Source: Lingula anatina | Lineage: Eukaryota; Animalia; Brachiopoda | Assembly: GCA_051362555.1 (NCBI GenBank) | Contig: CM120640.1 | Span: 68,364,788 to 68,428,787 of the forward strand | Direction of reading: 5' to 3' | DNA length: 64,000 nt | Part shown: one piece after another, positions 16,854-56,218 of the stretch | Position numbering within the stretch: position 1 is the first letter of the stretch | How the letters are laid out: the number at the start of each line of letters is the position of its first letter | Translations under genes and position numbers: made by a program | The notes under the pieces: model-generated | Databases searched by the model: none | The model's input: the letters and a program-made list of their open reading frames with translations, nothing else | What the model was told of the DNA's origin: nothing

Positions 16854-17290
16854 CACAAATGGATCTAAGCATGACAGTTTGCATGCGGTGAACTATTAAT
16901 AGTATTGAGAGCTAATTTCCATATATGTGATTTACACATTCGTTAATGCAAATTGTATCCACAATTAAATTTTAAGGTCTTAAGGCATGGCATGTCGCAT
17001 GTCAATAATAGAAGTTAATCTAAAATGTAAATTAGAGAGACTGAGAGAGAGGGACAGATACCACAGAGAGAGATGGTAGAAGAAACCTGAGTCTTCAGTC
17101 GGTTGAATAAATCATGTAGCAGAAAACTATTCCTGACTGTCTCAGTTGACTTATTGGTGAAAAAGTAACTCTAAGAAGGTGTGTATAACCTCCGACTGGT
17201 TATTACAACATGCATATTTTAATACGCCGAGAAACGAGCCCACTTTGGAAATAAATCCATCAACTCGATCGGCTCTAGTTTAGGAGGCAT

Positions 17291-18391: not shown

Positions 18392-18528
18392 TATGTATAC
18401 ACAACTCAATCTTTTGTAAGAGGGATTATATACTGGTATTTTTAAAGGCGCCCAAAAAATCAACACTTCAACTAAGATTTGTTCAGGTCATCTGTCACAC
18501 AGTTCATACAAGGGTATTTAGGAACATC

Positions 18529-18607
18529 ATGGACGGTGCAAACTTTACGGCGCAGCGTTTGCTCTTCTTGTTTTTTAGCATCATCGTATTTTCAGCGACC
18601 CAAGCAG
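18529..18607 (+). CDS. Orphan duplicate of laccase-A exon 1 (signal peptide); alternative first exon or gene remnant
   Basis: [26 protein letters not shown] with intact donor CAG|GTAAGT; near-identical to 25116-25194 including several hundred bp of flank. Confidence 0.7.
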
Positions 18608-18845
18608 GTAAGTCGACGTAAATGACGTTGAGTCACGTAGAAAACAATGGTGTTTTTAATGTGATATGAGTAGTTTTAATTACAGTTGTAAGTCATTTCT
18701 TAACATAACGTTTATGTAATATGAAGGGCTGTTCCATAACATGTCACATATATAGACAAAAGGGTTGCCATGTGTGGAAATTTGATTTGATTTGATTTGA
18801 ATGACTTTATTGGGTACAAGATTATATACAAGATTTTTAAAAGAG

Positions 18846-25115: not shown

Positions 25116-28100
25116 ATGGACGGTGCAAACTTTACGGCGCAGCGTTTGATGATCTTGCTTTTTAGTATCATCGTATTTTCAGCGACCCAAGCAGGTAAGT
25201 CGGCGTAAATGAAGCTGAGTCACGTAGAAAACAATGGGGTTTTTAATGTGATATGAGTAGTTTTTATTACAGTTGTAAGTCATTTCTTAACGTAACGTTT
25301 ATGTAATCTGAAGGGCTGTTCCATTACATGTTACATAATTACATGAATAGACCAAAGGGTTGCCATGTGTGGAAATTTGTTGAATTCGTGAAGAAAATGT
25401 AGATTTTACTTTTTGGGTCATAAGAAAAGTGTTTGAAGTGCCATCTTGTTTATGTTGCCACACCTACACGGAAATAAACTACTACTACTTTACAAAAACT
25501 GTAGGTCATCCCAAAGTTTTAGTTAGTACATCAACCATTTTTTTCAAAAGCCCTTTATATGGTTACATGTTATGTTAAATACATACTGTTGCTCAAAATG
25601 TGTGACACATTCTCGTGAATTCAGGTTTTAAATGATGTTACTGATTGTCGGGGACATTTAATAATTCACGAGCATTTGCAGTCACTTCAGGTAACGTCTT
25701 TGTTTGAAGTTTTTTCGCAACGCATTTCTCCGTAATACTTAGCACGTAGAATAAAGTCTAAAAAGTAAAGCCGTCTTGTTTGTTAATCTGAGTAAGAAGT
25801 TGAAGAATCCAACCTTTGACTTGGCTTGAGATTAAAGAGTGGGATTTCCCAGATCGTCAGAATTGTACCGGGGCAAGCAACGAGTGAACATTAAATGACT
25901 GAAATTGTTGTTGTTGTCTGCGTTGGATTTTCTCATAGCGACTTATTTGGACCACGAATCTGTTAAGAACCGGTAGTATTAACGCGTCAACCGCTCAAAA
26001 AGTTTACAACGGTTTACATTCTGAACTGGATGACATTTCTACCTCAACCGTTTTGCCATAAAATTTTATGAATTTGATGGAAGTTATTTTAATGATTATG
26101 TTCGCGTTGGGGTCCCTTTTTATTTACATTAAAATTACACTTTGAGTGAGTTTTGAAAGCTTGTTTTTTTAAACAAAAAATGTACACAATAAAGATGCGT
26201 TTCAAAATTGATCTAAGTTTATATCCCTTCTTCTGACCTTTTTGTCTTTTCTCTTTTTAGGACACTCTGGCGCCCATTTCATAAAACTCATTTTACCTCT
26301 ACCATGAGCTGTTTAACAATCTTGGGCTTACATAATTTTTAATTATTTTACAGATCGCCACGAGTGTGCTCGAGTTTGTCAGCGAAATGTCCACAAGACC
26401 TGCGAGTACAATTTCACCGTCGAGTGGTATCTTACGCTATCCAAGGTAGAATGAATAATAAAATTTAAATATTACGAGATTGTACCAGAAAGTTCAAATT
26501 GACTAGAATTGAGTAAATTAAGGGTCGAACGAAATTCCAACATTTACATACAATACAAAGGACGTCCGACCATAAAGCCACGTCATACACAGGTATGAAT
26601 CCCTTAACGCCATTTTTAAGTGACCCTATTCAGCACAGGGTAGATTTTCCAGGTGGCATCGGAAATTTTCGTATACTTACGGAAATAAGTATGATTTTAT
26701 TTATACTTTTCTCCTTTACATCTGTCAGTAATACCTCTACCGCCATGCACCAATGAATAAAGAATTGATTTTGTTTACGTCACAGATGCATTTTTTACTA
26801 AAAGTCCTTTTCTGCAGTCTGGTAATACGCAAGAACTGCGTTTGAAGAGGAGAGGTATCATTTTTGGTTTAGTGATATCTCAGTCCCCAAAACAGCCACA
26901 TGGCGTTAAAATACAAACCTAACGACATAGCGATTGAAAATGGCTGTGATACAGAATCTTGATGTTTTTTAATGACATCTTTTCTCCTCTTTTTGGACTG
27001 CATTCAAAGACTGGGTTCCCATGCCTAGATCGGTTAATTGACAGCAATTTAGGCAGACTCCCCAGGGAGATAGATCGATCCAAATATATGTGGGAATGGT
27101 CCCAAAGATTATACATATTCTGTTGTCTATTGTGATCAGCCATTTATTCATTTAATGAAAACACTTTCATTATTCAATAAGGTCAAAACATATATCTCTA
27201 CAAGATTTCTGCTTGGAAAAATAGGTGGATTAAAACGAATGAAACAAACACGTGTATTTAGAGAGGATTTAAACAAACGAGACAAACATGAATATATAGA
27301 GAGAGTTCAGTTTTCCACGTATAACTCATTGTGCTAAGTAAATGACACACTATTATTATTCGTTGCTTATAAAAATTCTTCCAAAATGTACAAACCGAAT
27401 GTTACGATACATTCTAGGCTTGCTACGACTGTCCATTCAACTTGACGGACTGCCACCGCCCCCATTGTATAGCCGCTGATGGACATATGCGAGCTGTCAT
27501 TGCGGTCAATAGACAGATACCAGGGCCAATGATAGAGGTAAGACAAAGTATTTCACATATTTAGAAAACAAATGCGTTAACAACACATCATACAAAAAGG
27601 ACGTAGAATCAGTTATCCAAATTATCAATATTTAGGGACCTGTCAGTACATTGGCTTTATGATGTGTTTATTGTAAATTAATCAAAACATATGTGATTGT
27701 CATCCAGGTTTGTGAGGGTGATACCTTGGTGGTGAATGTAAAGAATGAACTTGAGGACGGTGAAAGTACAGTGATACATTGGCACGGTATCCACCAGATG
27801 GGGACACCGTACATGGACGGAGTCAGTATGATAACACAGTGCCCCATTCCACAGTTCACAACTTTCAGGTACGCTACGGGGATGTTAGACACATTAAAAT
27901 GTAATGTTGATAGCCTTTTTGCGAAGTATATTGTATTAAGGTCCTTTTTATTATTTTTATTCAAATCTATCGCAAAAATATGGCAAAAGTGGCAGCAGCT
28001 GTTATCATTCATATTTAAGGAAGTCACCCAAATGTTGTAAGAAATCAATGTCTACGTGTATCATTGTGTCTCAATATTTTATTTGTTTTCTGCACATGTA

Positions 28101-31100
28101 CATGGGTTGGTATAAGGATCTCAGACATTATTCTTCTTCTAATTTTTGTGTCTTTTCAATCCCTTTCGTAAGGAAGCTTCTCCTTTTTTTGCCATATTTT
28201 ATTTCCCATCCATCAGCGTTTGGGTCAGTAAACATGCATTGATGATCCGACTCAGAGTAGAACACTCTTTTATTACATCCATCTAGCTTTAAGGCATGAA
28301 CCTCTCTGGTGACTTAATATTGCACAAAAGGTCTCTTGTTACAATCATAAGTTATGCCAAAAGGAAATGTCAGTGCTTAGCATACAAAGTATACCACATT
28401 GGGCCTAAGGTATACTAAAGTTGACAAAAAGTTGCTACATTTAAGGCAAACACAAGTCATTTAATATGACCTGCTCATTTGCACAACAGCATTACAAACG
28501 CATTCCAGTTATTTCTTTTTTAGAAGTAAGACTATTATTCTTATGCCTGGACACGAATGTGGATTTCACTTAGCAAGAGTGTGAAGGCTTGTGCATGGGT
28601 ACAATGTATAACCTCACGTTACCAACTTACATGTACATTATTCTTGGCTTGACATGGTATGCCCAAACACTGACATTTAATTGTGTCGCAGGCCAATGTT
28701 TACCCCGTCAAAGCGAATGTTTGCAGGATAATTCTAACAGGTCATCTTGGAATTGTTTCTGTTGATACTAGTGAAAGAATGTTTTTGCTCTTTCGACGTG
28801 ATTCATTGAAACTCCGATATCTAAATATGATTTTTTTTTTCAAACTATTTCTGGCCCCTACAGATATTTATTCGATCTTTTACAACAAATGAAGTGCAAA
28901 TATTTTAAACATGCCATCTTTAAAGACATAACAACTCTTTGTATGACATTCATATTTCACAACAAATACATTGTAAACAACTCATAAAAAAAAATTATCA
29001 TATGAACGTCGGTTATCGCAATTATTCTGGAATCTGTGGTTGCCATCGGACCACGTGGACCTTCATAGATGGCTTCCATCTTTAAAAAATCACTTGATAT
29101 ATTATTACAAAAATCAAACTTAAAGTAAAGAAACATGGATTTTATTTAAATGGCAGAACGAAATCATTAACATTGGACAGTAGGGTAAAACGCCGTTTAC
29201 TCCGTTTATTGCACTTTTCCCACCAAAATGTCTTTATTTCATCAAAATGTAAGAAAACTTTTTTCTTTTTCTTTATCTTTTTTATTCATTTATTTATTCA
29301 TTTATTTTAATTTTTTTTGGGGGGGAGGGGAGGGGGAGAAAGAGAAAGATTGACAGCCGTAGTACTTAAGCAGAAGTCTACTCTAATACAGGTACACGTT
29401 TAAAGCCAGCCCAGCTGGGACCCATTTCTATCATTCCCACATTGGCTCGCAGATCGCGGACGGCCTGTTTGGTGCGTTAATAGTTCGCAAACCACCGGAA
29501 GATGAACCACATAGGACCCTGTACGACGAGGATCTTCCTAGTCACGTGGTTCAGCTGGCAGACTGGTTTCCAGAGCCATCAAATGCACGTTTTGTCCATT
29601 TGATGCATCACAAGTGAGTGTCGTTGTTGATATCCCTAAACAAGGGATCTTCCCAGTAATGTAAGTTATAGATATCCCTCCACCAGGGGTCTTCCCAGTG
29701 TTGTGTTGATATCCGCCCAGCAGGGGTCTTCCCAGTGCTGTGTTGATATCCCCCACCAGGGGTTTTTCAAGTGTTGTGTTAAAATCTGTCAACCAGGGGT
29801 CTTCCCAGTGTTGTATGATATCCCTCCACCAGGGGACTTCCCAGTGTTGTGTTGATATCCGCCCAGCAGGGGTCTCCCCAGTGTTGTGTGGATATCCCTC
29901 CACCAGGGGTTTTTCAAGTGTTGTGCTGAAATCTGTCCACCAGGGGTCTTCCCAGTGTTGTTGTTGTTGTTGATATCTGTCCATTAGGGATAATTCCGAG
30001 TGTTGTTATAGATATCCCTCCACCTTCTCAGTGTGTTGTGGTAATATCCCTCCACCAGGGGTCTTCCTAGTGCTTTTTTGAATTGATACCAGTGAACAGA
30101 GATGTCAGCTTTATGTTTTTTTTCTGTCTGCAAACAATCAAATTTAATTGTTGATGATGAAAATTATGATTTTGTAATAAGTGATCATTTATTTTTGATA
30201 ATGAACCTGAGTGATTCTCAAATAGTAAAGTGAAATCTTCTCTTTCATACAGGTTTGATGTCTTTCTTCCACTTTCGTTAATGTTAAACGGGAAGTCTGA
30301 TAACTACGAAGTGAAACTGAGTTCCAATCCTAACATCACGGCAAGACCCCCTCTAGAAGTCTTTCACGTGACCCAGGGTAATCGATACCGCTTTCGCTTC
30401 ATCAACGCTGGTCACATGTCATGCAATTTTAAAGTGTCGGTTGACGCCCACAACTTGACTGTCATTGCTGCCGATGGTGTTGCTGTGAAGCCCTTGGAGA
30501 TCGATGTATTTGGAATAACACCAGGTATTTATGCATTGTTATTAACTTTTTGTAAAGCGACGTGACTTTTTGCAATTAACAAAATGTTAACAAGGGAAGT
30601 AATGGTGATTTATAAGAAATATCAACTCTAACAGTATCTATAATCACGCAAAGCATTTCACCACTTCATAGGATAAGCATTACTACTTCATGATGATAGG
30701 CGACTTCATTCGTTAAAAAAAAAGGACCCTCATGAATGCGACTTCGCGATATAAACCACTTTATGGGACATTTGTATCCAAACATATAATCGTTATAAAT
30801 ATAATTTCTTCTTGAATTTTTAGATAAAATAGTTATAATTATAATCATGGAAATTAGTCTTTTTAAAGTGCGACGCGACTTGATAAAGGCGATTGGCATG
30901 TACCAGTATGTCACTTCAGTGATTTTATTATACCCTAATATTTAATTATTTATTCATCTTGTAATCCAACAGCCTACCGATACTCTGCCGTGTATGCCCC
31001 CCCCTACTTTGAACGCCTATGGTCCCCCCTTTCAGAAATCCTGGGTCCGCCTGCATATGTCCGAGTATTTTAATATTGCTCAAGACATACACCCCAAAGT

Positions 31101-34100
31101 ACTAATGTTTATACAGAAATATTCGTAAATATAATTGAAACGTACTGTTTATCAATGTTGGATAATTTTTTACAGTATAAAAGTATGTTTTTTTCAAAAA
31201 CACTTCATCGCCATTATCCTATGAGGTAGCAGGCAATATCTTACTTGGTGATGAAGTCGCTTTTTATCCTATGAAGTAGATTTGTCTGGGCATTTCTCCT
31301 GTGAAGTGGTACTACACCAATGTACAAGTATTATATTACAATATTATTATTAAATTATTCAATACAAATACAATTAACCTATAATTCGAAGCGCTGTGTT
31401 CGTCCGAGTTTAAATAATAAAATCAATAAAATGTTAACATGGGCAGTTCAGGACATATCTTTGTCGATATTGTTAATTTACCCTCCAGCAGTACATGCAT
31501 AGTATGGCATGCGCTTCATTCTACCACTTGAACTAAAGGAGGCTACATTGAACGTTAAACGTATATTATTAATTATTATTCGTTTTCAAATTACTTCCAG
31601 GTGAAAGATTTGACGTCGTCTTGCATGCCAATCAGTCAGTTGGAAATTACTGGTTGAAAGCGGTAGGCTTGGTAGATTGTGGTTTCTTAGGGCATGTGGC
31701 CCTAGGAGTGATAAGATACGATGGCGCGGCTGACGAATACCCCACGGAAGACAGGAAGGCAAACAGACTCGGAAAGGTTATTTTCACTTGTGTATCAATA
31801 TACACCGTTTTCAATTCATCCTTAATATAGATCAATCAAGGTAGCTCTTCTTTACAGATGTCTGATAGTGCTACAGGTGTTACAAATATAATACACTGGC
31901 ATTGTTGTTGCACAAGATGTAACTAGAATTTCGGAGCAATTCTTCCAGTTTGATTACAGGACCTTACAAGTTATTTGCATTATTTGCATAATACAAATAT
32001 AAAAACTAATTTGGAGGTTCGTTTCTTTAACTACATAATTCAGGTTTTGAGGCTTATTTCGTATCTATCAATGAAATGTGACTTTTTTTCAATATAAAAG
32101 TCGCCAGGGGGGTGTTAAATTGTTGAAAACAATAAAATAGTTAAACGAAGAAAAACAAACATAGTAATACATGAGCAATTTACTGGTAAATCGAACATTT
32201 GATATAAATCTGTCATTTCAGTATTTGAATCCAACCACAAGTGAGCCTGATAACCCAATTGCAATTAACGGACCGGACTTTGATATTCTCGTTGACGAGT
32301 TGGAAAATTTTGAGAACGATAATTTCACCGATGAGAAGGTAGATGTCTATTACTATCTTGGTAAGTCAAGTTACTGTATGATCGAGTCTAGTTTTGCTGT
32401 CACTTATTTTGAGACACGAATGTGTTTTGATTGTGTCTGTGCTATCTGTTCCGTTGCTTTTTGTCTTGACTTTGGGAAATATCGCTAGCCAGGGCTCTGT
32501 TTCATGAAATGCTTATATGCTTCTCTACAAAAATCTAAATAGCCGGCTATACAAAGTCGACTTTGTGAAATTGGTCTTGGAACGCTTTGCGAACTGCTAG
32601 GCTGCCAAAGGTTAGTTAAAACATATTAGAATATCAGGATAAATTACGATATTTAGGAGAAAACGTGACAATTTGACACAACAATACGTCATACGCAGAA
32701 TATGCTATATAAGGTTTTTCTGTTGAACATAATGTGGCGTACCGTACCTTAGTCGGCTAAATCATAAATTGACTTTAAGACTTTTTTCATGGAACAGCGC
32801 CCATTTGTATCGTCTGGAGAATCTGAAACTAAGAACGTAAGAACCAGTTTTGACGGTAAAATAATTTAGCAGTTTATGGTAGAATAATTAGGTACATGTC
32901 AAATCGACTTTACTTCTTCTTGTAATTTTAGGCATGGACTTTCTGAACAATGACAACACAAAGTTTAACCATTTTGTCTACTACCCCGTGAAGGAGCTCA
33001 CTCCAGCCAAGGCACATTACACACCAGCTTTAGACAATGTATCCTTTCTGTTGATATAAGCGAAGAAAAGGTATATACGCAAAATAATTATCACCCAGTA
33101 TTTCAAAATTTTAGCTTTATCATCTTTATCAGGCCCCGTCACATTTATTCGCAATCAGCAGGAATCAAGCTGAATGAGCCGGAATGAAGAGTTGTCTAAA
33201 TTCGTACTACATTCGGGAAGAAATTTCAAATTGACCTAAATTCTTGTAAGAATGCCGGTGGAATTAGAATTCGCTTGAATCCGCCTGTAATGATTCGTGC
33301 ACATTTCGGCTGTATTAGCTCTCAAATGCAGCTCGAATGTAGTTGGAAAACTAGGAATATCGATAATGCTGTCATAATGCAGTCAGAATATTTATAATAC
33401 ACTTCGAATGCCGTATGAGTGTAGTTCGATTGCTGGCTGAAATAGGATTTCGGCGGCAATCGAGATGCATTCGAGTTGCATTCCGGCTCATTCTAGCAGG
33501 ATTTGAAGTGTATTGGCATTTCGGTTCTCCCTCGAACGCGACCAGAATGTTTCAAATGCTGTCGGAATGCCCCAAGAATATTTAGAATGCACTCATAGTG
33601 CAGTTAGAATACACTTAGAATGCCATTCGATATTTGTCCACTTCGAAGTTTTGAGCATGAGCAAAACATTCGGGCCGGCCACAGGAATGGGTAAAATATT
33701 TGGAATGCACTCAGAAATTTTAGAATGCTCTTCGAATATCCAGGAACGTACAAAGAATTGTCTTTCCGAGCATTCTTGCTCATTCCGCCTTTAGTATGAC
33801 GGGGCCTTTAAGAGCAGGTGTCACATGCCATTGTCTGCTGTTTGTTTGATTTGTCAATACCAATTGTGGATATTACACTGAATTATATAATTATGAATAT
33901 CATGTTAATTCCCAATGTTATAAAAGCATTTAAATTGACCTACTGTAAGGGACAAATACACGGACTTTCGATCCTCGCTGTGGATGTCTAAAGATCACAT
34001 ATCAGAAGTTTAAGGCTCAAAATATATCATTCCATGAACTCCACCCTCTCAAAGTTTGTCAAAGTTATAACTTTCCTGGAACCCTGGTAGTTATTTCATA

Positions 34101-34483
34101 AATACCGTTCATTTTTTTCCTTAAAGACACTAAAGATAACGTTTGCGTTCCCTCCTGTGCCCCTCATGACACAACCAGATGACATTGATACCGCCTGGTT
34201 TTGTAATCACTCCACAGTTAACACCACCAACTGCGGTGACGATCTCTGCAAGTGTACACATATGGTGGAATTCAGGCTTAATCAGGTAAAAACATAATTT
34301 TAACCTTGAGCCACCCTTTCTTTATCCACTTTTAACAATACTATGTAAATGCTTTTGTGCTCAAAGCAACGGGATGAGAATTTTAAATGTCGTTTCTTTA
34401 CGTCATTGGTTTATTTAAAAATAACTCATGATTTAATGTCTTTTAATAACTATTTAAACTCTTTTTTTACTTTCAATTTTGCT

Positions 34484-34522
<39 letters not shown>

Positions 34523-35712
34523 TTTGGGGGGGGGGGGGGATTCTGAAGATAACTTGCGTACCTAAATGGATAATTGTTTCCAAAATGTTTCAGGTTGTGG
34601 AAATGATCCTGATCAACGAGGGTAGACCGTTCAAAAGTGGGCATCCACTCCATATGCATGGTGCATATTTTCGTGTGCTAGGCATTGGAAAGGTAAGTGC
34701 ATGTGTATTCCCTAGTTCTCTTCAATGTAAAATGAAATTAGCAGTAAAAGGCTTACTCGACTAATTTCTGTGAATATTTGACATTTGATTTTTCGTGCGT
34801 GTTTATATATTTCCTAATAATTACCGTTTTAATTTATTTCTTTAAATAGATGTGTATAACCATGTTTGGAGCAAATAAATTGACGAAAAACTGATAGCAG
34901 CAGCTGTCTTCTTTGATATTTACAATTCTAGCTCGGAAGTTCTATTTCGGTTGAAGAAGTAAAGAAACTTCACGAGGAGGGCAATCTAAGATATAAACTT
35001 ATAAGTCCTAGCTACCGTGACACAGTAAACGTACCTGACGGAGGATATGCCATCATACGATTCAGAACCGACAATCCAGGTAATTGTTAAATATTAAAAT
35101 TAAAAAAGAAAACGGAGTTTTCCTTTGTATATAACCCAAACCCATTATTAAATATTATATAATTAATACAAAAGACCCATAATATTCTTGTCAGGGTTGT
35201 ATACCTACGACAATATTCAAGTTTTGTCCTTTGGTTTATACTGTAATCAATGCAGGCCTATAGACTGTTTACGTTAAATACTTCTCTCAGAATTTAGTGC
35301 TCATTTACATATCATAAATACCGTAATGCACTGAAAAAGGTACAGAAAAATGATAACCTAATACCAAATAGACATTGATGTAGTTTTATTAAGTTATATA
35401 TTTCATTTCCATACAGGTCTTTGGTTCTTCCACTGCCATGTTGACTCTCATCTAGCCCAGGGTCAAGCCATGTTGCTGAAGTTTGGAGATTTTGCAGAGT
35501 ATCCATCGATTCCAGCAAACTTTCCTCGATGTGGAAGTTGGGGCGGACATGTGTACAAAGATGCAACTCACAGGGACCAATGTCCTCAACAACCTGTGCA
35601 GGAGTGTAAAGAACCAACCTCGACCGGAAATCGTAGCCTGCCGCCATTTTCTTTGTTTCAGTTGACCATCTTCCTCCTACATGTTTATTGGATAAAATCT
35701 GGATTGTTATAG
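25116..35712 (+). CDS. Laccase-like three-domain multicopper oxidase, copy A (686 aa; signal peptide, Cys-rich N-terminus, hydrophobic GPI-like C-terminus)
   Basis: Exons 25116-25194, 26354-26445, 27418-27537, 27708-27868 (HWHG), 29392-29613 (HFYHSH), 30253-30524, 31601-31776, 32222-32360, 32932-33038, 34136-34285, 34594-34692 (HPLHMHG), 34932-35079 (RFRTDNPG), 35417-35712 (HCHVDSH); 2061 nt, phases consistent, no internal stops. Confidence 0.93.
29625..30075 (+). repeat. Intronic minisatellite, ~37-bp unit, about 12 degenerate copies
   Basis: Unit GATATCCCTCCACCAGGGGTCTTCCCAGTGTTGTGTT; starts just after the exon 5 donor of copy A; absent in copies B and C. Confidence 0.9.
33039..34135 (+). 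other. U12-type intron 9 of laccase copy A
   Basis: Donor GTATCCTTT; TTTTCCTTAAA branch-like motif about 10 nt before AG; joins ...ALDN|ITFAFPP in frame. Confidence 0.8.
33131..33807. mobile_element. Harbinger-like MITE within laccase-A intron 9
   Basis: AGGCCCCGTCACA ... TATGACGGGGCCT termini; interior dense in GAATGC/GCATTC motifs. Confidence 0.7.
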
Positions 35713-37364: not shown

Positions 37365-40300
37365 ACGAACCTTGCAGAGATCGTCACTACAGTTGGTAGT
37401 GTTAACTGTGAAGTGGTTACAAAACCAGGCGGTATCAATGTCATCTGGTTGTGTCATGAGGGGCACAGGAGGGAACGCAAACGTTATCTTTATGGTCGTT
37501 AAGGAAAAACAAATGCACAGAATATATTTTAATAACAACTATTCATCAATGTTCAGTTGTTTTTTTTCGGAATTTGGATTCACAAAATGATTTTCTATTA
37601 AACAAACGAGGAAACAATAGAAAATTTTAAAATGTGAAAACTAATATTTTGAAAGTTTGGGCACCAGTGATAATTATTACGTTCAGAAACCTCTTTATTA
37701 TCATCGACCAAAAGGATACGTTGTCTAAAACTGGAGTGTGGTGTGCTTTGGCCCGAGGGAGCTCCTTCACGGGGTAGTAGATACGGTGGTTAAACTTCGT
37801 GTTGTCATTGTTCAGAAAGTCCATACCTAAAGATACAAGAAGAAATAAAGTGGATTTCACTTGTACATGTACTTTATAATTCTACCATGAGCTGCTGAAT
37901 AATTTTACCTCTTGTACTCTGAAGTCCACATCCTTCCAGACGCTTTTGTCCATTAGCCTGATATACTAAAACCCGGGGCCTATTTAAGAAGTCTTAAGTC
38001 AGTTATGGGGCTCAAATTTTAACAACTGATATTTATTAAATGTACGTTTCATAGACAGCTTTTATGACTGTATAAATCAATCTTTTCGGGCTAAATAGTT
38101 GGGCAAACATGCATGCATGAAACATGCATGAAACATGCACCGATTCGACTTATCAGCAAACCCAATCCAAATTCTCATCGGTAAATTTGTATATATAAAT
38201 ATTGTATGTAATGTAATAAATACGGAAAATATAACACAATAACAATTTTACAAGCCCAAAAAAGTACCAGCAAGACAAGACTCGACCGTACAATAACTTG
38301 ACTTACCAAGATAGTATTTAACATCTACATTTTCATCAGTAAATATTTCGTTCTCAAAATTTTCCAACTCGTCTACGAGAATATCAAAGTCCGGTCCGTG
38401 GGTTTTGATCGGGTTTCTTGGTTCACTTATGGTTGGATTCAAATACTGAAATGTGGAGATTTATAATACGTTGGCGACATGATACACTTCTATCCGTGTT
38501 GCCGACTTATAACATTGAGTGATACATGTATTTGACTTATTTATAATTACAGTAAATGTTCTTCTTTGACTTTTTGCCTTGTTTTCAAATTGATATATTG
38601 TATATCTACAAACAACACCAAACTGTCTGGAGCCATCGTTCTCAAATACCAAAATAGAGAAAGGTCCATTTTGATACACAGGTTTTGCGTCAAAACACCC
38701 ACACATAACGTATGAATAGTTTTAGTTATCATTATTAAAGACATCATAAAAGTTTGATATCGTTTAAAATGACGGAAAACAAAACTGCTTTATCAAGGCA
38801 TAATGAAAAACAGATATGATCCAATATTTAAATTTATCGCAATTAAACCTGTAGCTAAATCACCAATAATTCCGGTGAATCGAAATTGCAGCATCTTATT
38901 TTAAATCAAAGATGACACAGTATAAAACTCGTCTCAGGCCCATACAGTTTATGTGAATGATTGGTAAACCATAGTATATTGAAGCATAAATTAGAATAAC
39001 CTTTCCGAGTCTGTTTGCCTTCCTGTCTTCAGTGGGATATTCGTCAGCCGCGTCATTGTATCTAATTACTCCTAGGGCCACATGTCCTAAGAAACCACAA
39101 CTCGCCATGCCTACAGCCTTCAACCAGTAATTACCAACTGACTGATTAGCATGCAAAACGGCGTCAAATCGTTCACCTGAAATTAAAGTTAAATCATGAA
39201 CGAATAATTGATCATTGATCAGGGCACGTTCAGGTTGCGACACGAAGCGCCTGATTAGAGACATTGCTGGATATCCATTTTTAGGTAAAATTAAAAAATG
39301 TCGTCTTGGCACCTGCACTTTTCCTGTTAAAACTGTATTGCAAGGAACTACAGCACTTCGTGATAATCAAAGATAAATGATTACCTGGTTTTATTCCAAA
39401 TACATCGACCTCTATAGGCTTCACGGCAACGCCATCGGCAGCAATGACAGTCAAGTTGTGGGCGTCAACCGATACTTTGAAATTGCATATCATATGGCCA
39501 GCGTTGATGAAGCGAAAGCGGTATCGATTACCCTGGGTCACGTGAAAGACTTCTAAAGGGGGTCTTGTCGTGATGTTAGGATTGGAACTCAGTTTCACTT
39601 CGTAGTTATCAGATTTCCCGTTTAACAGTAAGGAAAAGGACAGAAAGTTGTCAAACCTGCAGAAAAAAGAATGCTCAATGCATGCTAAACTCTGCTAGAC
39701 TGTACAAATAAAATAAGGTTTCAAATGCTGCTTTTTATATCAGATACCATATATAAAAGGACTTTAAAAACCCCAGTGTAGATATACTATTTTATTATCT
39801 TTACAGAGCATGTACGTTTTTTATCTTTTCTTCAGAACATTCACCCCCTTGTGACTTGTATAATAGCGTGTGTATCTACTACGTAAACGGTCCCATTCAC
39901 TTTCTATTCCAGAAAAAACAATCTACTAAAACCATTGGCACCTAATGATCCCCAAACGGGCTACATTCTCCTCCACTCACAGACCAACACACGCGCACAC
40001 ACACACACACACACGCACGCACACACACACACACACGCAAACATACACGCGACAAGTGTAGTGGAGTACAACAAAACTGTTGATTCGTCAGCAAAGACGG
40101 TGGGATTCCAGTGATGAAAGGTAAGTTTCATTACTCCCTGACCGTCTGCAGGAGAAAAGTGCAATGCCCCATAGACATACACGCTAATGTGCCTTTTAAA
40201 GAACTCACTCAAATGCTTATTGTGTAAAAAATGTTGATATTTCGCGGAATCTTTTTAATTTCACGGAGGTATTTCACCTTTATGCAAATCACCGAAGACC

Positions 40301-43300
40301 ATCAGATTTGAGGTGGAAGGTGCATGTAATTAATTTGAATAAATGATAAAAATATCTAAGCATCTGGATTTTGTACTTCGATACAATATGTTACGTTAAT
40401 ATCTGGAATAGAAAGCATTACTAAAAACAAGGTTTACAGCTGTGATGTGATAAAACAAAAAACAAGAAATTAGAGGCATATCTTCCTTTTTGTGCAATTT
40501 TTCATGTATTAAAAACTTTCAATGTGACTCTTTTGTTTTCCAATTTGTTAAGGGGCTTGATATTTACATAAGAATTGACAGCTTGATATCTCAAATCTCA
40601 TCCTGGTAGAGCACATTCAACAACAGCACTCACTTGTTATGCATCAAATGGACAAAACGTGCATTTGATGGCTCTGGAAACCAGTCTGCCAGCTGAATCA
40701 CGTGACTAGGGAGATCCTCGTCGTACAGGGTCCTATGTGGTTCATCTTCCGGTGGTTTGCGAACTATTAACGCACCATACAGGCCGTCCGCGATCTGCGA
40801 GCCAATGTGGGAATGGTAGAAATGGGTCCTAGCTGGGCTGGCTTTAAACGTGAACCTGTATTAGAATAGACATATTACAAATCAGTTCATCCTGGGTCAA
40901 TCATCAATCAGAAAAACAAATTGGGTTTTTGAATTGCAGCCGCTGTCGCTGGACAGAAATTTATCACAAACTCACAAACAACAAACAAACGCAAGATACA
41001 TGTACACAATGAAAACGGCTTAAATTCACTTCTTTTTAGAATATTGGCCAAAAGGCAATAATCATCCTTTGATTATGTATGTGTCTAACATCCCCGTAAC
41101 GTACCTGAATGTTGTGAACTGTGGAATGGGGCACTGTGTTATCATACTGACTCCGTCCATGTACGGTGTCCCCATCTGGTGGATGCCGTGCCAATGTATC
41201 ACTGTACTTTCACCGTCCTCAAGTTCATTCTTTACATTCACCACCAAGGTATCACCCTCACAAACCTGGATGACAATCACATATCTTTTGATTTATTTAC
41301 AATAAACACATCATAAAGCCAATGTACTGCCAGGTCCCTAAATATTATCAAAGGTATATATACATTTGAGTAATTAATCCTACGTCCTCTTTCGTATGAA
41401 ACGATGGACACGCATCTGCCGTTTAAAACTGCAAAATACATGTACTCCGTCTCACCTCTATCATCGGCCCTGGTATCTGTCTATTGACCGCAATGACAGC
41501 TCGCATATGTCCATCAGCAGCTATACAATGGGGGCGGTGGCAGTCAGGTTAAATGGACAGTCGTAGCAAGCCTAGAATGTATCATAACGTATGGAAGGTA
41601 CAAGACTGAGAAATTTTATAAGCAATGAATAGTACATCGTTGACATTGGTTCACATTTTTCTTATTGCCTTAACCTTACCCCTTTTTTTCAAAAGGGGTT
41701 TTAACCCCTGTCTGTGTGTCTTTCTGTCTGTTTGTCATCAACATAACTCAAAAACATATGGACCGATTTTAATAAAATTTTCAGGGTAGGTCAGAAATGG
41801 GTTAACTTAGAAGTGATTAATATTTGGTGGTGATCCGGATCAATAATCAATCAATAATCAATAATCAAAAATCAATCATCAACACAACTCAAAAAGTAAT
41901 GAATCGATTTTTATGAAATTTTCAGGGTAGGTCAGAAATGGGTTAACTAAGAAGTGATTAGTTTTTGGTGGTAATCCAGATCAATAATCAATCAATAATC
42001 AATAATCAAAAACCAATCATCAACATAACTCAAAAAGTTATGGACCGATTTTAATGAAATTTTCGGGGTAGGTCAGAAATGGGTTAACTTAGAAGTGATT
42101 AGTTTTTGGTGGTGATCTGGATCAATAATCAATCAATAATCAATAATAATAAAAAAATTGCTGCCTTGGCGGAGTGCTTTTCTAGTTTCTCTTTTTCTTA
42201 ATCTTTACCTTGGATAGTGTAAGATACCAATCGACGGTAAAGTTGTACTCGCACATCTTGTGGACATTTCGCTGACAAACTCTAGCACACTCGTGGCCGT
42301 CTATAAATACATGTATTAGAAAATACGTAAGCTCGAGGAAGGTTAACAACTCGTGGAAGAGGCAAAGATAAGGCTTAGGAAATGGGCGTCAGATTTTCCT
42401 AATAAGAGAATTGGCAAAACGTACAGAAGAAGGTCCTAAAAATAAAACTTTGAACAATATTTAAATTTTATCATATACAGTTTTATATATTACAGAGACA
42501 CAGACAGATTTTTTTCATATGTTTACTTATTTTTTGCTTTAAGTCACTTAATTGCGTTTTTAAATTCGCTTTGTTTAATATATAAATCATAAATTGTATG
42601 TTTTTATTTAAGGGTAAATTCTTCGGGGCAACTTGCCCCGGGGTCTAACAACCCCTGGTCTCCCCTATGTACATGTAAGAGCACTAGCACGATATGCCGT
42701 GATATAACAATAAGCTGTTTTTATATACAATTCCTGAAGAAAAGCCATATTCAGTGGGTACATATACAATATACCAGCATGTTCGATAAATATACGTTAA
42801 GCTGCGCATTGTACTCATTTCAACTCGCGCTGTGAGAAACGAGCGTATTATTCAGTTGATAATATAGCCAAAGTAAGTTTTTGTTCAATACAATAATTTG
42901 GGAAAATATTACTAATGGACCCTGTTTACGCTGCCCATAATGTTTGTTAACACCCAAACTACCTTCCTTTCACAATATTTGAAAGATGGCCTTCACCAGT
43001 CTAAGCTGGATTGTTGAATTTTATTTGGTTTTTGTTGAAATAAGTTCAAATTGTTTCATTTTATCATCAGAGAAATATCACTAATGATGAAATAACAGCA
43101 GTTGCGGGGAAATATTGCTTGCGTTTTATTTTTCTATATGAATATACGACAAGTAACAATTACGTATAATTAACCTTAATTTTCATAGAGACTACTATAA
43201 CATTTACACTTACAATTGCGTAAACTTACATTTTGATTTAACTTACCCGCTTGGACCACTAAACATGTGATAATGCTTACAGCCAGGTACACCAAACGCC

Positions 43301-43328
43301 GTGCCGTTAAGTTTACAACGCTCGTCAT
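37365..43328 (-). pseudogene. Inverted laccase paralog B, frameshifted and 3'-truncated
   Basis: Exons 43247-43328, 42209-42300, 41456-41571 (116 nt versus 120: 4-bp deletion), 41105-41265, 40634-40855, 39385-39656, 39001-39176, ~38306-38444, 37720-37826, 37487 down to ~37365 where homology stops mid exon 10; exons 11-13 with the L3/L4 copper sites not found. Confidence 0.88.
41660..42186 (+). mobile_element. HINE/pearl-like element carrying three tandem ~141-bp core repeats
   Basis: GTCT microsatellite then units starting ~41738, ~41880, ~42021 (CAACATAACTCAAAAA...TCAGGGTAGGTCAGAAATGGG...GATCCGGATCAATAATC); ends CTGCCTTGGCGGAGTGCTTTTCTAG. Confidence 0.7.
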
Positions 43329-45897: not shown

Positions 45898-46186
45898 ATG
45901 GGTGTGAACTTTAAGGCACAGCGTTTGGTATTCCTGCTTGTTAGCATTATCGCTTTTACTACGGTCCAAGCGGGTAAGTTAAGTCTAAATGTAAGTTAAA
46001 AAAATTCTAAATGTAATAAGACCGTTAGTTAAGAAAATAGTTTCACACAAAAGTTGTCAAATTTCAGAGCCTTATCTCAGTAAAGGGACAAATTTGCAGA
46101 AAAAGTTACTATAGAATTTAATTTCCTTGATGATTAAATAAAAGACATAACTTTTTGAAAATGCCTTAATTTTCATTATTTTTTAC

Positions 46187-46218
<32 letters not shown>

Positions 46219-49200
46219 TTAATATTTAGAATAAAGAATGAAGAAATAGCACTATTTTCTTAAAATGGATGAATCGTGAGTTAAAAGAAAGCAAAGAAAA
46301 TCCATTCATTTTTAATGCAACACAGTTGAAGTGGAAATACCATCCAACACAGAGTGATTATTTTGTCTTCCCATTACTAAATTTTAATAACAGAAAGCAT
46401 GGCTCAAACTTTTGCATCTTAAATGGAGGGCGTTCCGTAAGTTCTTTTGAGCAGCATGATAGTGGAAAATAATATGACCTCCATTATTTGTCAATTCTTT
46501 TAAACCTTGGGCTATATTTACATATACATTTGAACAATATTCACGTCTTTGCAGCGTGAGGGGAATAAGTACCATTACAATGTGTGGCTTAACGTGTTTA
46601 CACTGTTTACCTACCCATTGAATATGGCTTTTGCTCGCGTATTGAATAACAAAATACCCCTTTTTGTTAATGATAACCATGTTTGTTATCAAGATTATAA
46701 AACTAGCCCCTGAGATTTTTTTATTTGTACTTTTTGTTTCCAGTTTACTTGGTTTTCATTTTCCATATTCAATCAGTGTCAAAAATGTTAACAATTTGCA
46801 CAAAATATATAGATACGTAAAGCAAAAAAGAGTATTTCACTAATCCTAAAACAAATAGATACTTTTAATAATTAATTTGTAGACAAGGCGATTTTAAAGG
46901 TTTTCCATCAAGTTTATATGCAGGGTGAATGCCCGTTATCAAAAGTTTCTTCGACCACTTTGGAATGCAAATAAACCAATATACAGCCCAAATCATGATG
47001 ATCAACGGATCGGAAGACAGGTAGGACCTGCTCTAGGTGGCTTGACAAATATATGACTGTGATGAGTAATGCTATTTGGGGAGAATATTAACACAGACGC
47101 AAGGAGAGAGCCGTCAGTCTGAGAGCAAATAGAAATAAAACAATTCCAGATAATGAAATATGTGTACTTTATTGCAAAGAACTTAGACTTCCCCTTTTGC
47201 ATAGAAAATAATGGATGCAGCTCAGCTATCGTTCGTCATCTACACATGTCAAGCAGGGGCTGGACGCAGTGTGGCCGTAGCAAATAGCGTGTAATTGAAT
47301 ATAATAAAATGTAAATTATACATGTAGGTACGTCTATCATCTAGACGTACCTACATGTATAATTTACATGTAGGTACGTCTATCATCTAGAAATGTCTTC
47401 TGGAGTTGGGTTTATCTACCTTAAGTTTAGGGACACGTAATGGATGCTCAGCGTAGGTTCCTTAGGAAAATTTTGGATAAAAAGAGGAATGAAGAACGAC
47501 CCTTTCATGGCTTTTCGGAATACCTGTTTAAATGCAAGGGCAAGGGCTGCAATTTCCTTCTTTGCAATGCTGTTTACATCAAATACCATAAACGAAGTCA
47601 GAACGAAAAGAAATATACATGTAGAATCTTCACAGGAAATGTGTGTAATAAAATTCTACCACCTACTTCGATATCATATGATTCCGCTATTGTTTATTTA
47701 TTTATTGTTTTATTTTCAGGGCGTTCCACTCCAAGTATTTGTCTTTTGTTTTGTCTATTTTTATTAAAGACATTTTATCATTTATTTTTTTTTTATTACT
47801 TCTTCCACGTGTAATTAACCTCAGATATGCATTATATCGAACTGTTTTACAGACCGCCACGAGTGTGCTCGAGTTTGTCAGCGAAATGACCACAAGACCT
47901 GCGAGTACAACTTTACCGTCGAGTGGTATCTTACACTATCTAAGGTATACAGAGTGCGAAAAAATAAGAAACAAAATCAGGAAATTACGCGAAGGCAAAA
48001 AGTGTAGAGATTTTAATAAAATCAGAGCCAAAGTAGTTTGATCAGTTCCCAACTAGAACAGTTATAACTATATTTAATATATGTAAATCTAAAATGTGTT
48101 AATTTCAATCAACCAGAAAGTCGACTCTGCTGCACAAGGGGAAATGTTTTGCGCCAGACTATATGGCACCTGTTCTTTATCTTTAATTATGTTAGCGACA
48201 ATATGGGAAAAGGTGGCAAAATGAAAGCATGTGTTTGCTTTGAAGTTATTATCCTGAAAGTGAAGGCAATGCGTGCTAGAAATAATTTTACTGGTTGTCA
48301 TTCGAGCATGATTCGATAGAATTCCCTATAAAATACCTATACTACATTATCAATTATTAATAGTTTTTAAAGAAAAACAGAAAAGATTAAGACAATAAAA
48401 AAAAACATGAAAACTCCCTGTAGTTATTTTGTTAGTGTTAATGATGCACGAACTGTTGCTTATACATTTATAAAAACCCTCCCAAAATGAACAACACGTA
48501 CGTTACGATGCATTCCAGGCTTGCTATGACTGTCCATTCAACTTGACGGACTGCCACCGCCCCCATTGTATAGCTGCTGATGGACATATGCGAGCTGTCA
48601 TTGCGGTCAATAGACAGATACCAGGACCGATGATAGAGGTGAGCACAAATATATTGAAACCTTCGTGTGCCTGAAGAGCCCTCGGGCGAAGTGTTTGGAA
48701 AATGTAATGTAAAAGTCATTCAATTTCGATATTGTATGTTTTGGCTCGTCTTCATGAGTTCAGCGTCTTCATGAGTACTGTTCAGCATGAATTACACACA
48801 CTGGACCAGGGCCGTAGCCTGAGCAAACTGCCAGGGGGGGGCAGTAAGCGGATACGAGGAGGCGAAGTCACCAAGGGGGGGGGTGTCCCCCTCCCACGGT
48901 GTGGAAAATTTTTAAAAACTGTATGTATAATACTGCATTCTGGTGCATTTTAACTGTTATTTATTGCTCAATCAGAAGTCAGAAATTGCGATTATTTTTT
49001 TTTTGCACCTCAAATCCCAGGGGAGGCAGCTGCCCCCCCTGCCCCCCCAGAGGCTACGGCCCTGTGGACAATAGAAGTGTCACCCCCTAAATCAAAGTAA
49101 CCAAAGTAGGCAGATCTTGGGTAGTTATAATGCCTGCATGGTCTACTTATAATGTGACTAATGAGTATAAAACCGCTGTACCATGGAATTGTATTGTTGG

Positions 49201-52185
49201 CCTTGTACATGTACAGCAAATGTTATTCCTGTCTTCCTCCAATATGGCAAGTTACAGGCAATTATCTAACTTATAGACGTCAAGTTATTAACCTGAAGAG
49301 GCGGAATATAAGCAATGTCAGAATATCGATACAGTTGAATTGTTCAGTCAGAACCGTGCAGATCCCTCGAGGGTCTGGTCTCGGTATAGAAACACTGGAT
49401 CAAGAGACAAATTGCCTCTGATGGGTCGTCCAAGAAAAACTACTGACAGTGAAGACCGACGACTGATTTTGATGTCCAGGTTGTCAAAGTTCGACATTGC
49501 TTGTCAGTTGACAACACAGTGGAACAATTTCACACATAAGAATCTGTCTGTGAAAACTGCTAGGCGTCGGTTACATGCTCAGAGAGTAAACAGCAGGGTA
49601 GCAAGACTGAAACCTCTTATATCGTTACAAAAAGGGCAACATAGAGTGAAAAAAAGGCCAACAGGATCTGGAACCGGACAGTCCATGACAATTGGTCCTA
49701 TATAGTTTATCTGATGAGTGTCGCTTTTGTCTGACCTCTGATGACAGACGATGCTGGCGAACTGCTGGTAAAATGTGTGGAATGATATGTCAAAACTTAT
49801 GACAAATGCCCGTCCAACCAGAAGACAAACTCTGTTAGATTCAGTGTTTCATGCTTGGGCCAGCATTAGCCCTGAACGCATTAGACAATAATATGAATCC
49901 TTGCCTCGCAGACTGGCAGCTATTATTAGGTCACGTGGCTATGCCACTAAGTACTAATTTTGGACTTGAAACTGCATATCTTGGTAGAGTGTATGTTTTG
50001 TGAAAATTGTTGTTAGTAAAACGATACCAGGAGCATATCATTCCACAGTCATTTATCTCCCACAAAGCAATGTTTCAGTAGGGGTGGCACTTCTACTGTC
50101 CAGTGTGTGTAGATATAATATTGTTGGTGTGTGTGTTTTATACAACTTGTTTTTGTTGTTTATTTTCCCCGCGGTGACGGTTGAAATAGACCCCAGACAC
50201 CTTCGTTTAGAATGCTTTGGCGTGGTTTGAGACAGTTTACACCAGCTGATAAATCAAAGATGTAAAAAAAAGACTGGAAACCTTGAGCGAACACAATTGA
50301 ATTCCCACCTAAAATATTTTCGCCCTCCCTAAATTTTCATGTATAGATAAATTATGAATATTTATTAATACATTGGCTGAGATGTGTTTATTGTAAATAA
50401 ATCAAATTGTCAATTGTGATTGTCATCCAGGTTTGTGAGGGTGATACCTTGGTGGTGAATGTAAAGAATGAACTTGAGGACGGTGAAAGTACAGTGATAC
50501 ATTGGCACGGCATCCACCAGATGGGGACACCGTACATGGACGGAGTCAGTATGATAACACAGTGCCCCATTCCACAGTTCACAACATTCAGGTACATGTA
50601 CGCTACGTGAATGTTAGACACATACAAAATCAAAGGATGATTGTTGCCTGTTGGCCAATATTTTAAAAAGAAGTGAATTAAAACCATTTTCACTATACAG
50701 GAATATACATGGAACTTCTGTTTGTGTGTTTGTATGTGAGTTTGTAAAAAAAATTCATTCAATCTTCTTACAACAGATGAAGTCTAAATATTTTAAACAT
50801 GGCATATTTAACTCGTGAATTGTTGATTGAAGCGTTATTACTGTATATTGCTACAAATTCTACCCTCTGTCTTTATTTTATAAATATTAGGCATTTTTTC
50901 TTTTTCATTACCTTATTTATTTATTTATTCATTTTCTGGGTTGGGGAGGGGATAGGTTGAGCGGGAAAGAGAATTAGAGGGACAGCCTGGGTACTAAAGC
51001 AGAAATATCTGTTCCAATACAGGTACACGTTTAAAGCCAGCCCAGCTGGGACCCATTTCTACCATTCCCACATTGGCTCGCAGATCGCGGACGGCCTGTA
51101 TGGTGCGTTAATCGTTCGCAAACCACCGGAAGATGAACCACATAGGACCCTGTACGACGAGGATCTTCCCAGTCACGTGGTCCAGCTGGCAGACTGGTTT
51201 CCGGAGCCATGGAATGCGCGTTTTGTTCAATTGATGCATAACAAGTGAGTGTTGTTTGTTGATACTAGTGAAAGAAATGTTTTGAACATCAGCTTTAAAA
51301 TATCTTGTTTCGTTGATGCTGTGAAATAATTATTTTGTAATAATTGACCACTTACAATGTCGTTTTAAAACTTAAGAATGTTCCCTGTATTCTTGAGAAT
51401 AAGTTAACTAAGTGTTATTTATTGAACCAGTGTCTCTTTGTACAAATTTTGTTATGCAGTAATAATTGTTTTTTCTTCAGGGCTGACTTCTTTCTGCCAC
51501 TTTCCTTACTGTTAAACGGGAGATCTGATAAGTACGAAGTAAAACTAAGCTCTAACCCTAACATCACGGCAAGACCCCCTCTAGAAGTCTTTCACGTGAC
51601 CCAGGGTAATCGATATCGATTCCGCTTTACGAACGCTGGTAATCTGAAGTGCCATTTTAAAGTATCGGTTGACGCCCACAACTTGACTGTCATTGCTGCC
51701 GATGGCGTTGCTGTGAAGCCCTTGGAGGTCGACGTTTTTGGAATAAAATCAGGTTTAAATATATTTTTGATCACCATGCGGGGATGTTTTTTTTTTTTTG
51801 GGGGGGGGGTGCAATTATGATGTCGAAGGGTACAGGCAATTTACTTGTAAAGCTTTTATGTCTAACAGCTTCTCTCATGAAGCAATTCAGGGCTTGAACT
51901 TCAGTAAACCATACTGAATGTATTACTTTAATAATAAAATTTGAAAATCATTCGTTCATTTTAGGTGAAAGATTTGACGTCGTTTTGCATGCCAATCAGT
52001 CAGTTGGTAATTATTGGTTGAAAGCGGTAGGCTTAGTGGACTGTGGCCTTTTAGGGAATGTGGCCCTAGGAGTGATTAGATACGATGGCGCGGCTGACGA
52101 GTACCCCACAGAAGACAGGAAGGCAAACAGACTCGGAAAGGTTATTGAAATTCGTGTTTTAATACATGACTTAATCTCTCTTCAA

Positions 52186-52232
<47 letters not shown>

Positions 52233-55200: not shown

Positions 55201-56218
55201 TCATCTGCACGGTGCACATTTTCGTGTGCTTGGCGTTGGAAAGGTTTGTGGGCATTTTCTTACTTGTCTGAAAATAAAGTTACCAGCACTGCGTAAACTC
55301 AGTAATGGTAAATGGATATAAATTTGTTTAAATTTGTAAAATTATAATGAAGCTTAACATATGACAAGTTGCCAATACACTGACAACATAAATGCATTCA
55401 AATTTCAAATTCTAGCTCGGGAGTTCTACTTCGGTTGAAGAAATAAAGAGACTGCACGAGGAGGGCAATCTAAGATATAAACTTATAAGTCCTAGCTACC
55501 GTGACACAGTAAACGTGCCTGACGGAGGATATGCCATCATACGGTTTAGAACCGACAATCCAGGCAAGGGTTGAATATTGACATTTGAAATGAAAATAAA
55601 CATATTATTTGTATCGCATACTAAATGTTTTTGAAGTATTGATTGAAACCTGCATAGAACCGAACATTCCTCTAGATATATAACTTCGTTAAATTTGCAG
55701 TTAACGTAAGTGTCTTGACGCCCTTTGATTCTTTGTCAACGCACCCATTGCTAACGTTGATTGTTTAATTATAATTCATTTGTGACCATTTTTGCTAATT
55801 CAAATATGCACTCAAAATAGCACCAAAGAATAATCGAACATCAAGTTGGGATAGAGTTTGAATTTTAAAGATAGGGTTACTCCTTTTATTTATGTATGTA
55901 ATAACATTTAATTTTCATGCAGGTGTCTGGTACTTCCACTGCCATTTTAATCTTCACGTGAGCATGGGTCAAGCCATGTTGCTGAAATTTGGTGAATTTG
56001 CAGAGTATCCATCGATTCCAGCAAACTTCCCTCGATGTGGTAGTTGGGGCGGACATGTGTATAAAGATGCAACTCACAGGGACCAATGTCCTCAACAACC
56101 TGTGCAGGAGTGTAAAGAATCAACCGCGACCGGAAGTCGTAGCCTGCCGCTATTTTCTTTGATTCAGTTGACCATCTTCGTCCTACATCTCTATTGGATA
56201 AAAACTGGATTGATGTAG
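45898..56218 (+). CDS. Laccase-like three-domain multicopper oxidase, copy C (685 aa)
   Basis: Exons 45898-45973, 47853-47944, 48519-48638, 50431-50591, 51023-51244, 51481-51752, 51965-52140, 53148-53286, 54230-54336, 54752-54901, 55145-55243 (HVLHLHG), 55416-55563 (GC donor), 55923-56218 (HCHFNLH); exons 2-13 same length as copy A. Confidence 0.92.
48795..50109 (+). mobile_element. Internally deleted Tc1 element in laccase-C intron 3
   Basis: TA|CACACACTGGAC(..)AATAGAAGTGTCACCCC versus GGGGTGGCACTTCTACTGTCCAGTGTGTG|TA; GRPRKTT...[12 protein letters not shown]; C-terminus [19 protein letters not shown]. Confidence 0.85.
48807..49064. mobile_element. hAT-like MITE inserted in the left TIR of the Tc1 element, 5-bp TSD
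   Basis: TGGAC|CAGGGCCGTAGCCT ... AGGCTACGGCCCTG|TGGAC. Confidence 0.8.
53500..53960 (+). mobile_element. Highly decayed Tc1 DDE-domain fragment
   Basis: Translates with stops to ...[20 protein letters not shown]..., resembling WPxxSPDLNPIEHLW. Confidence 0.4.
54337..54751 (+). other. U12-type intron 9 of laccase copy C
   Basis: Donor GTATCTTTT; branch TTCCTTAAC 54733-54741, AG ending at 54751. Confidence 0.82.

Follow-up and report, generated by a model that had tools for sequence, protein, structure and literature searches.

Natural glutamine in the predicted axial slot of the type 1 copper site of laccase-like genes from Lingula anatina

Laccases have been classed by the residue located ten positions past the cysteine of the type 1 (T1) copper site, which is Met, Leu, or Phe (PMC3129051; PMC8517187). 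The PROSITE signature PS00080 is given there as ending in [AG]-[LM] (PMC3129051), and a 2015 review describes Gln as "not naturally found in MCOs" (multicopper oxidases; PMC4323517). In the brachiopod Lingula anatina, two laccase-like genes (copies A and C) within a 64-kb window, i.e., the whole stretch of 64,000 nucleotides that was analyzed, and the paralog P0003 (RefSeq XP_013389793.1) break this ending with Gln at Cys+10. The locus raises the question of whether this Gln occupies the axial slot of the T1 copper, which relatives share it, and what type of copper site it would form.

Gene copies, transcripts, and copper motifs

Self-comparison of the window identified four tandem laccase copies (A-D) and a stray exon 1. 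Copy A (25116..35712, forward strand) was intact and contained 13 exons that encoded 686 amino acids in an open frame with GT-AG introns, and three joints within exons 9-13 were found in RNA. Its exons 1-7 were located at 25116-25194, 26354-26445, 27418-27537, 27708-27868, 29392-29613, 30253-30524, and 31601-31776, and exons 8-13 at 32222-32360, 32932-33038, 34136-34285, 34594-34692, 34932-35079, and 35417-35712. Copy C (45898..56218, forward strand) was also intact, with 13 exons that encoded 685 amino acids at 88% identity to A; exons 1-7 were located at 45898-45973, 47853-47944, 48519-48638, 50431-50591, 51023-51244, 51481-51752, and 51965-52140, and exons 8-13 at 53148-53286, 54230-54336, 54752-54901, 55145-55243, 55416-55563, and 55923-56218. 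The introns of copy C were GT-AG except for intron 12, which had a GC donor. Copy B (37371..43328, reverse strand, ends approximate) was an inverted partial duplicate that had lost 4 nt of exon 3 through a deletion and broke off within exon 10; its exons 11-13 were not found in the window, and it is probably a pseudogene. Copy D (59244..62995, forward strand, ends approximate) comprised exons 1-4, with the remainder past the window edge, and its translation matched the N-terminus of P0003. The stray exon (18396..18784, forward strand), an additional exon 1 of A with its flanks, was 90% identical to 24988-25379 and represents either an alternative first exon or a duplication remnant. The last exon of copy A was 99% identical to one L. 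anatina RefSeq protein and 84% identical to another.

Several other features of the array were observed. RefSeq XP_013382487.1 (P0004) was A-like to about residue 455 and then C-like, read through window position 55564 at the GC donor of copy C intron 12, and ended there. This model is therefore chimeric, derives from a collapsed assembly, or reflects a recombinant allele. Domain 1 was near-identical among the copies (27418-29613 vs. 48519-51244, and also in B and D), with a dS of 0.12 and a dN of 0.005, and the middle exons reached a dS of up to 0.59 between copies; gene conversion is a possible source of the near-identity of domain 1. Fragments resembling Tc1/mariner transposases were recognized by eye among the laccase copies (19850-20871, 44544-45347, 49292-49705, and 63596-63850), as were broken reading frames resembling retrotransposon integrase-tail or envelope-like fragments in a GC-richer stretch (21100-23500, reverse strand). 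Intron 9 of A contained a very high-copy repeat (33100-33830), whose contig depths in X5 summed to tens of thousands and which was also seen in RNA reads. A tandem repeat occupied part of intron 5 of A (29617-30081), and two inverted, internally repeated elements (14988-15226 and 16548-16867) formed a pair upstream.

The axial-Gln laccase-like genes of Lingula are expressed. Raw reads from five of the nine listed RNA runs and from DNA run X6 were mapped on copy-A coordinates. Run X12 yielded 238 reads on 32850-35900, with exonic reads stranded as predicted, and 31, 19, and 17 of its reads covered the three predicted copy-A joints. Run X18 supported two copy-A joints, and X15, one of the five RNA runs, showed zero exon coverage on copy A. 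Mean depths at 35462-35466 were about 12, 47, and 24 in RNA runs X13, X19, and X12, respectively. At a 2% threshold for variant letters among reads on 35417-35560, no alternative letter was detected at 35464-35466 in these three runs or in DNA run X6; the uniform RNA and DNA reads rule out an assembly error or RNA editing at this CAA codon. In 31 RNA reads of X19, the copy-C loop appeared as a loose end that continued into an identical CAA codon. Copies A and C are under purifying selection, with a dN of 0.065, a dS of 0.246, and a dN/dS of about 0.26 over 659 codons (Nei-Gojobori script), and domain 1 was almost invariant between the two.

A previous sequence-only reading of this DNA had reported a copper motif with a CAA-encoded Gln in both copies, together with ten intact His ligands and the Cys. 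Translation of the window recovered the motifs and both codons exactly where they had been reported. Copper motif 4 of A (HCHxxxHxxxGQ, 35431..35472, forward strand) includes His594, Cys595, His596, His600, Gln605, and Met607 by translation and alignment, and the corresponding motif of C is located at 55937..55978 (forward strand); each lies inside the last exon of an intact 13-exon model. The codon of Gln605 in A (CAA, 35464..35466, forward strand) falls in the T1 axial slot (Cys595+10) and was unchanged in RNA reads, and that of Gln604 in C (CAA, 55970..55972, forward strand) falls in the same slot by translation and alignment. Exon 11 of A (34594..34692, forward strand) encodes motif 3 (His523, His526, and His528) and a hypervariable loop adjoining the T1 site, and exon 11 of C (55145..55243, forward strand) encodes motif 3 as HVLHLH, in which Val replaces the Pro after the T1 His. 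All 11 copper ligands (ten His and one Cys in four motifs) were aligned in A, C, and P0003, and P0003 likewise carries Gln in the axial slot. Translation and motif tabulation placed Asn at Cys+3 of copy C, a position usually occupied by Asp or Glu. Relative to A, both C and P0003 have lost the Cys+3 acid, carry another residue in place of the Pro that follows the T1 His, and have a changed T1 loop; the T1 loop of A is almost identical to that of abalone.

It had also been pointed out that the Gln is kept although neighboring residues differ. This description stood, as A and C disagree at every one of the six positions within 597-603 that are not ligands. As evidence of selection on the Gln it is weak, because the three paralogs are about 88% identical and 550 of 659 positions are invariant among A, C, and P0003, so that an unchanged Gln is the default and the loop is the unusually variable part. 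Differences among the three cluster at about 213-232, 383-392, 423-447, 513-527, and 593-607, and by comparison with known laccases, several of these clusters would lie in loops that face the T1 site.

Register and frequency of the axial residue

Met607 is present in every Lingula copy, and a shift in register could make it the axial ligand of an ordinary Met site. Some bacterial proteins read HCHxxxHxxxGQGM (L017), and their longer loop appears to shift the Met downstream. Such a shift is very improbable in Lingula. The insertion is absent: the T1 Cys is separated from the downstream PxC Cys by 32 positions, equal to 207 of 238 motifs, and the Gly at Cys+17 is in place. Gln605 aligned without gaps to the Met of the termite laccase 8r7i, and columns 595-612 were contiguous in a 117-row alignment, in which the Gln605 column contained M 102, K 7, Q 4, L 3, and one gap, and the Met607 column contained L 67, M 15, V 15, plus others. 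Furthermore, Cys+12 is generally a hydrophobic strand position (L 139, M 34, and V 29 among 238 motifs), Met occurs there in 25 of 210 Met-axial proteins as well, and P0252 and most Lys-bearing members lack it. The paralog P0003, which is 88-89% identical to A and C and contains three cupredoxin domains (PF07732, PF00394, and PF07731), was available as an AlphaFold model (pLDDT 91.5, no copper in the model) with a helix at 598-603 followed by a strand at 606-611. Met607 lies inside this strand, which makes its ligation unlikely at the level of the fold. Gln605 thus occupies the alignment column of the axial Met in related proteins, which favors it over the downstream Met for the axial slot; spacing, Cys+12 statistics, P0252, and the Lys-bearing members largely rule out Met607.

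The axial residue was tabulated in 292 proteins (290 from databases plus A and C) that were the top matches of three query-centered searches and thus form a redundant set, not a census. The motif was present in 238 proteins, with M 210, K 15, Q 8, L 4, and G 1 in the axial slot, and 54 proteins without the motif were fragments or degenerate. Gln is therefore rare at Cys+10 among the animal laccases of this set (8/238). The eight Gln rows represent four lineages, namely Lingula (five rows), P0252, P0122, and the crinoid P0087, whose model ends shortly after the motif. P0252 was 46% identical, with an axial Gln and no downstream Met. The 15 Lys rows included eight from Haliotis, two from Patella, one each from Lottia and Gigantopelta, two from Batillaria, and one from Megaselia. 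Among 27 sequences of the Lingula group, the axial residue was K in 14 (eight from Haliotis), M in 7, and Q in 6, and axial Met was found in 203 of the 211 motif proteins outside the group, with P0122 counted among these outsiders although it fell inside the Lingula group in later trees. A subfamily defined by Gln, as previously proposed, was not recovered, because the gastropod members mostly carry Lys and others carry Met. The axial Lys is kept across limpets, abalones, Gigantopelta, and Batillaria (P0017, P0166, P0171, P0174, P0175, P0177, and P0179), and this conservation is arguably stranger than the Gln of Lingula. P0064 (6257 amino acids) harbored the MCO C-terminal motif ten times in tandem, with two forms alternating, and is probably an annotation or assembly artifact.

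A GTDB scan restricted to the Gln pattern yielded 99 matches, of which 18 were within MCO-like frames and only five had Gln in apparent register. These five loci belonged to Nonomuraea (L005, L047, L051, and L083) and Sphingorhabdus (L056), and four of them had all four copper motifs within the stretch analyzed; where the locus was full-length (four cases), the motif match spanned 2001-2045. The remaining MCO-like matches probably represent other architectures in which the Gln is a loop residue. A metagenome scan returned 21 matches, including four MCO-like ones: two loci encoded P0252 with the codon CAG, and contigs L109 and L116 (2001-2045) carried an MCO gene of fungal appearance, rich in introns, in which Cys+10 is Lys. 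A laccase of Cryptococcus reportedly also has Lys at the axial position. Together, the bacterial, metagenome, and animal matches indicate that polar residues occupy the axial slot rarely but repeatedly, also beyond animals; besides Lingula, predicted natural Gln-axial MCOs included one crinoid protein and several from bacteria.

The sequence-only reading had known of no described natural family of this type. Our literature search, which covered text rather than figures and few subscription journals, turned up neither a description of an MCO family with a natural axial Gln or Lys nor any work on the Lingula and gastropod laccases considered here, although a passing mention of such an MCO may exist in earlier work. 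The available text of PMC6700816, PMC4059628, PMC10488915, PMC13323077, PMC7036934, and PMC4595640 contained no report of a Gln- or Lys-axial MCO. Laccase goes unmentioned in the Lingula genome paper and in its text supplement; the paper lists a shell-matrix MCO as hephaestin.

Relationship to mollusc laccases and the T1 pocket

In phylogenetic trees, the Lingula copies grouped with the Lys-bearing gastropod proteins and with Met-bearing proteins of a chiton, Pomacea, and unionids (FastTree support of 1.0; SH-aLRT of 95). When the T1 loop was masked and a mixture model was applied, this group (17 of 36 rows) retained a support of 87/86 with an unresolved interior, and a sister position of P0252 to Lingula (support of 97) was lost. 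These trees moderately support a predicted mollusc-plus-brachiopod laccase subfamily that includes A, C, and P0003. At least six changes of the axial residue are required on the 36-row tree, and each step along the codon path ATG-AAG-CAG (Met, Lys, and Gln) is a single base change. The gastropod relatives with axial Lys (Patella KAK6192790.1, Haliotis XP_048241782.1, Lottia ESO97324.1, Gigantopelta XP_041367040.1, and Batillaria KAK7487838.1) were 43-47% identical to the Lingula proteins and had a T1 loop nearly that of copy A, and the chiton (XP_064601859.1), Pomacea, and unionid members had axial Met. Lingula, Lottia, Haliotis, and the chiton also carry canonical Met laccases in a separate clade, which in Lingula are P0185 and P0290. 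Degenerate MCO relatives without the His-Cys-His motif were separate among the search matches, and A, C, and P0003 are not of this kind.

The pocket of the subfamily differs from the canonical one, as HHHxxG-NK of domain 2, the Asp of DEG, and the Glu-Phe of HCHxEFH are all replaced. His221/His222 were present in 16 of 17 canonical rows vs. none of 16 subfamily rows, a small Ser or Gly occupied Cys+4 in 22 of 27 subfamily members vs. 2 of 211 proteins outside, and Gln occupied Cys+8 in 24 of 27 vs. 4 of 211. The HHHxxG-NK motif of MCO1 has been linked to ascorbate or iron binding, and its loss weakens the previous guess of such substrates; to the extent that this general background on the motif holds, its loss would argue against a simply retained MCO1 ascorbate role.

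The termite blue laccase BP76 (PDB 8r7i) was both the best sequence match (E value of 3e-114) and the best fold match to the P0003 model (Z score of 44.4, rmsd of 2.2 over 565 residues, and 34% identity). It shares with the Lingula proteins a Cys-rich N-terminal region, three cupredoxin domains, and the motif spacing, but has an axial Met and different T1 loops. Insect MCO1/laccase-1 and its canonical mollusc, echinoderm, and Lingula orthologs (e.g., XP_013415315.1) were about 40-44% identical to the Lingula Gln laccases and likewise possess all copper ligands; a signal peptide and a hydrophobic C-terminus may be common to both, and insect MCO1 is predicted to be GPI-anchored (PMC4593997). However, they form a separate clade that keeps HHHxxG[D/x]NK, DEG, and HCHxEFHxxIGM, in which the Lingula Gln replaces Met, and the Lingula Gln laccases failed to group with Daphnia, beetle, and canonical mollusc MCO1-type proteins. 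Stellacyanins, bilirubin oxidase M467Q, and Thermus thermophilus M460Q combine His-Cys-His with an axial Gln, as the Lingula sequences do. Stellacyanins, however, are single-domain electron carriers, whereas the Lingula proteins have three domains with trinuclear-cluster ligands; the mutants are artificial, whereas the Lingula Gln is natural in a full three-domain oxidase.

Predicted T1 site and alternative explanations

By analogy with these systems, it is somewhat probable that A and C encode secreted, anchored oxidases with a four-coordinate, stellacyanin-like T1 copper of lower potential that would act on easily oxidized diphenols at the cell surface. The copper would be held by His523, Cys595, and His600 together with Gln605, the latter via its amide oxygen. 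Electrons would pass via His-Cys-His to the intact trinuclear cluster, where O2 would be reduced to water, as laccases (EC 1.10.3.2) do when they oxidize diphenols. Hydropathy showed an N-terminal peak in A and C and a C-terminal peak above threshold in C only, and the P0003 model has helices at both termini; secretion and a GPI-type or membrane anchor would be suggested by these hydrophobic ends. Replacement of the Pro after the T1 His in CueO reportedly introduces an NH-S bond and a higher potential, and if this analogy applies, the potential of C and P0003 would be retuned upward. The potential drop that the sequence-only reading had ascribed to engineered Met-to-Gln changes agrees with published mutants, in which it amounts to about 100-200 mV: T. 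thermophilus laccase M460Q decreased from 357 to 258 mV with kcat falling from 5.98 to 3.18 per s (PMC6487685), bilirubin oxidase M467Q was about 200 mV lower with stellacyanin-like parameters and lost much activity (PMC4323517), and a rusticyanin Gln mutant decreased from 667 to 563 mV (PMC11881046). These analogs favor a stellacyanin-like T1 site, and the Lingula potential may lie about 100-200 mV below that of a Met equivalent. Substrates of the catechol or catecholamine type, with roles in tanning, pigment, or defense, are a guess from the roles of invertebrate laccases, which have been linked to immunity and tanning (PMC6289776; PMC4593997).

The stellacyanin-like reading has to be weighed against a different function of the polar residue. 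Lys is the commonest non-Met axial residue in the predicted subfamily, which may count against reading the Gln as a coordinating ligand. Protonated Lys is a poor copper ligand, and since Lys may not coordinate, what the members have in common could be a pocket that has opened, instead of a stronger ligand. According to this main rival, which we judge rather unlikely, the Gln or Lys faces solvent or substrate as a hydrogen-bond donor in a pocket opened by the small Ser or Gly in place of Phe at Cys+4 and by the Gln at Cys+8, the copper has three ligands or binds water, and its potential would not be low. Lys and Gln would both be accounted for by a polar side chain that does not coordinate, and the frequency of both pocket residues in the subfamily and the retention of Lys in Patella, Lottia, Haliotis, Gigantopelta, and Batillaria favor it. 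Nevertheless, the Met-to-Gln mutants of three T1 proteins shift as coordination predicts, and C and P0003 retain the axial Gln even though neither the small residue at Cys+4 nor the Gln at Cys+8 remains in them.

Other points that would count against the stellacyanin-like reading are the missing Cys+3 acid in C and P0003, the retention of Gln that is expected by default among such similar Lingula copies, the lack of exon coverage in RNA run X15, the subfamily support of just 87/86 and its unresolved interior with the T1 loop masked, and, by analogy, the activity lost in the Gln mutant of bilirubin oxidase (PMC4323517). The first and last also bear on whether the Gln is simply tolerated in a redundant array, leaving a weak or decaying enzyme that is a poor oxidase or a metal-binding or structural protein. 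The array is a recent tandem one with a broken copy (B), and Lingula has its separate canonical Met laccases. Such decay is nonetheless improbable given the low dN/dS and the almost invariant domain 1, the complete set of 11 ligands, unlike in the degenerate relatives, the spliced and stranded RNA, and the recurrence of non-Met axial residues across phyla within the subfamily.

A broader and more tentative reading is that of a Met/Gln/Lys axial switch within an old subfamily, in which the Lingula enzymes would be stellacyanin-type oxidases and the T1 copper of limpets and abalones would be amine-ligated or pH-switched. If true, it would provide two natural T1 types that in MCOs have so far been made by mutagenesis only. 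The new part of the present analysis is a predicted natural subfamily with a remodeled T1 pocket and an axial Gln, Lys, or Met. A natural Met/Gln/Lys series in one scaffold, together with Lingula paralogs that have different second-sphere residues, would make two sides of a long-standing question directly testable: the extent to which the axial ligand controls potential and turnover in a working oxidase, and the means by which the protein offsets a strong ligand. The Lingula genes may also point to a subfamily of animal laccases that has been overlooked and whose substrate pocket is distinct.
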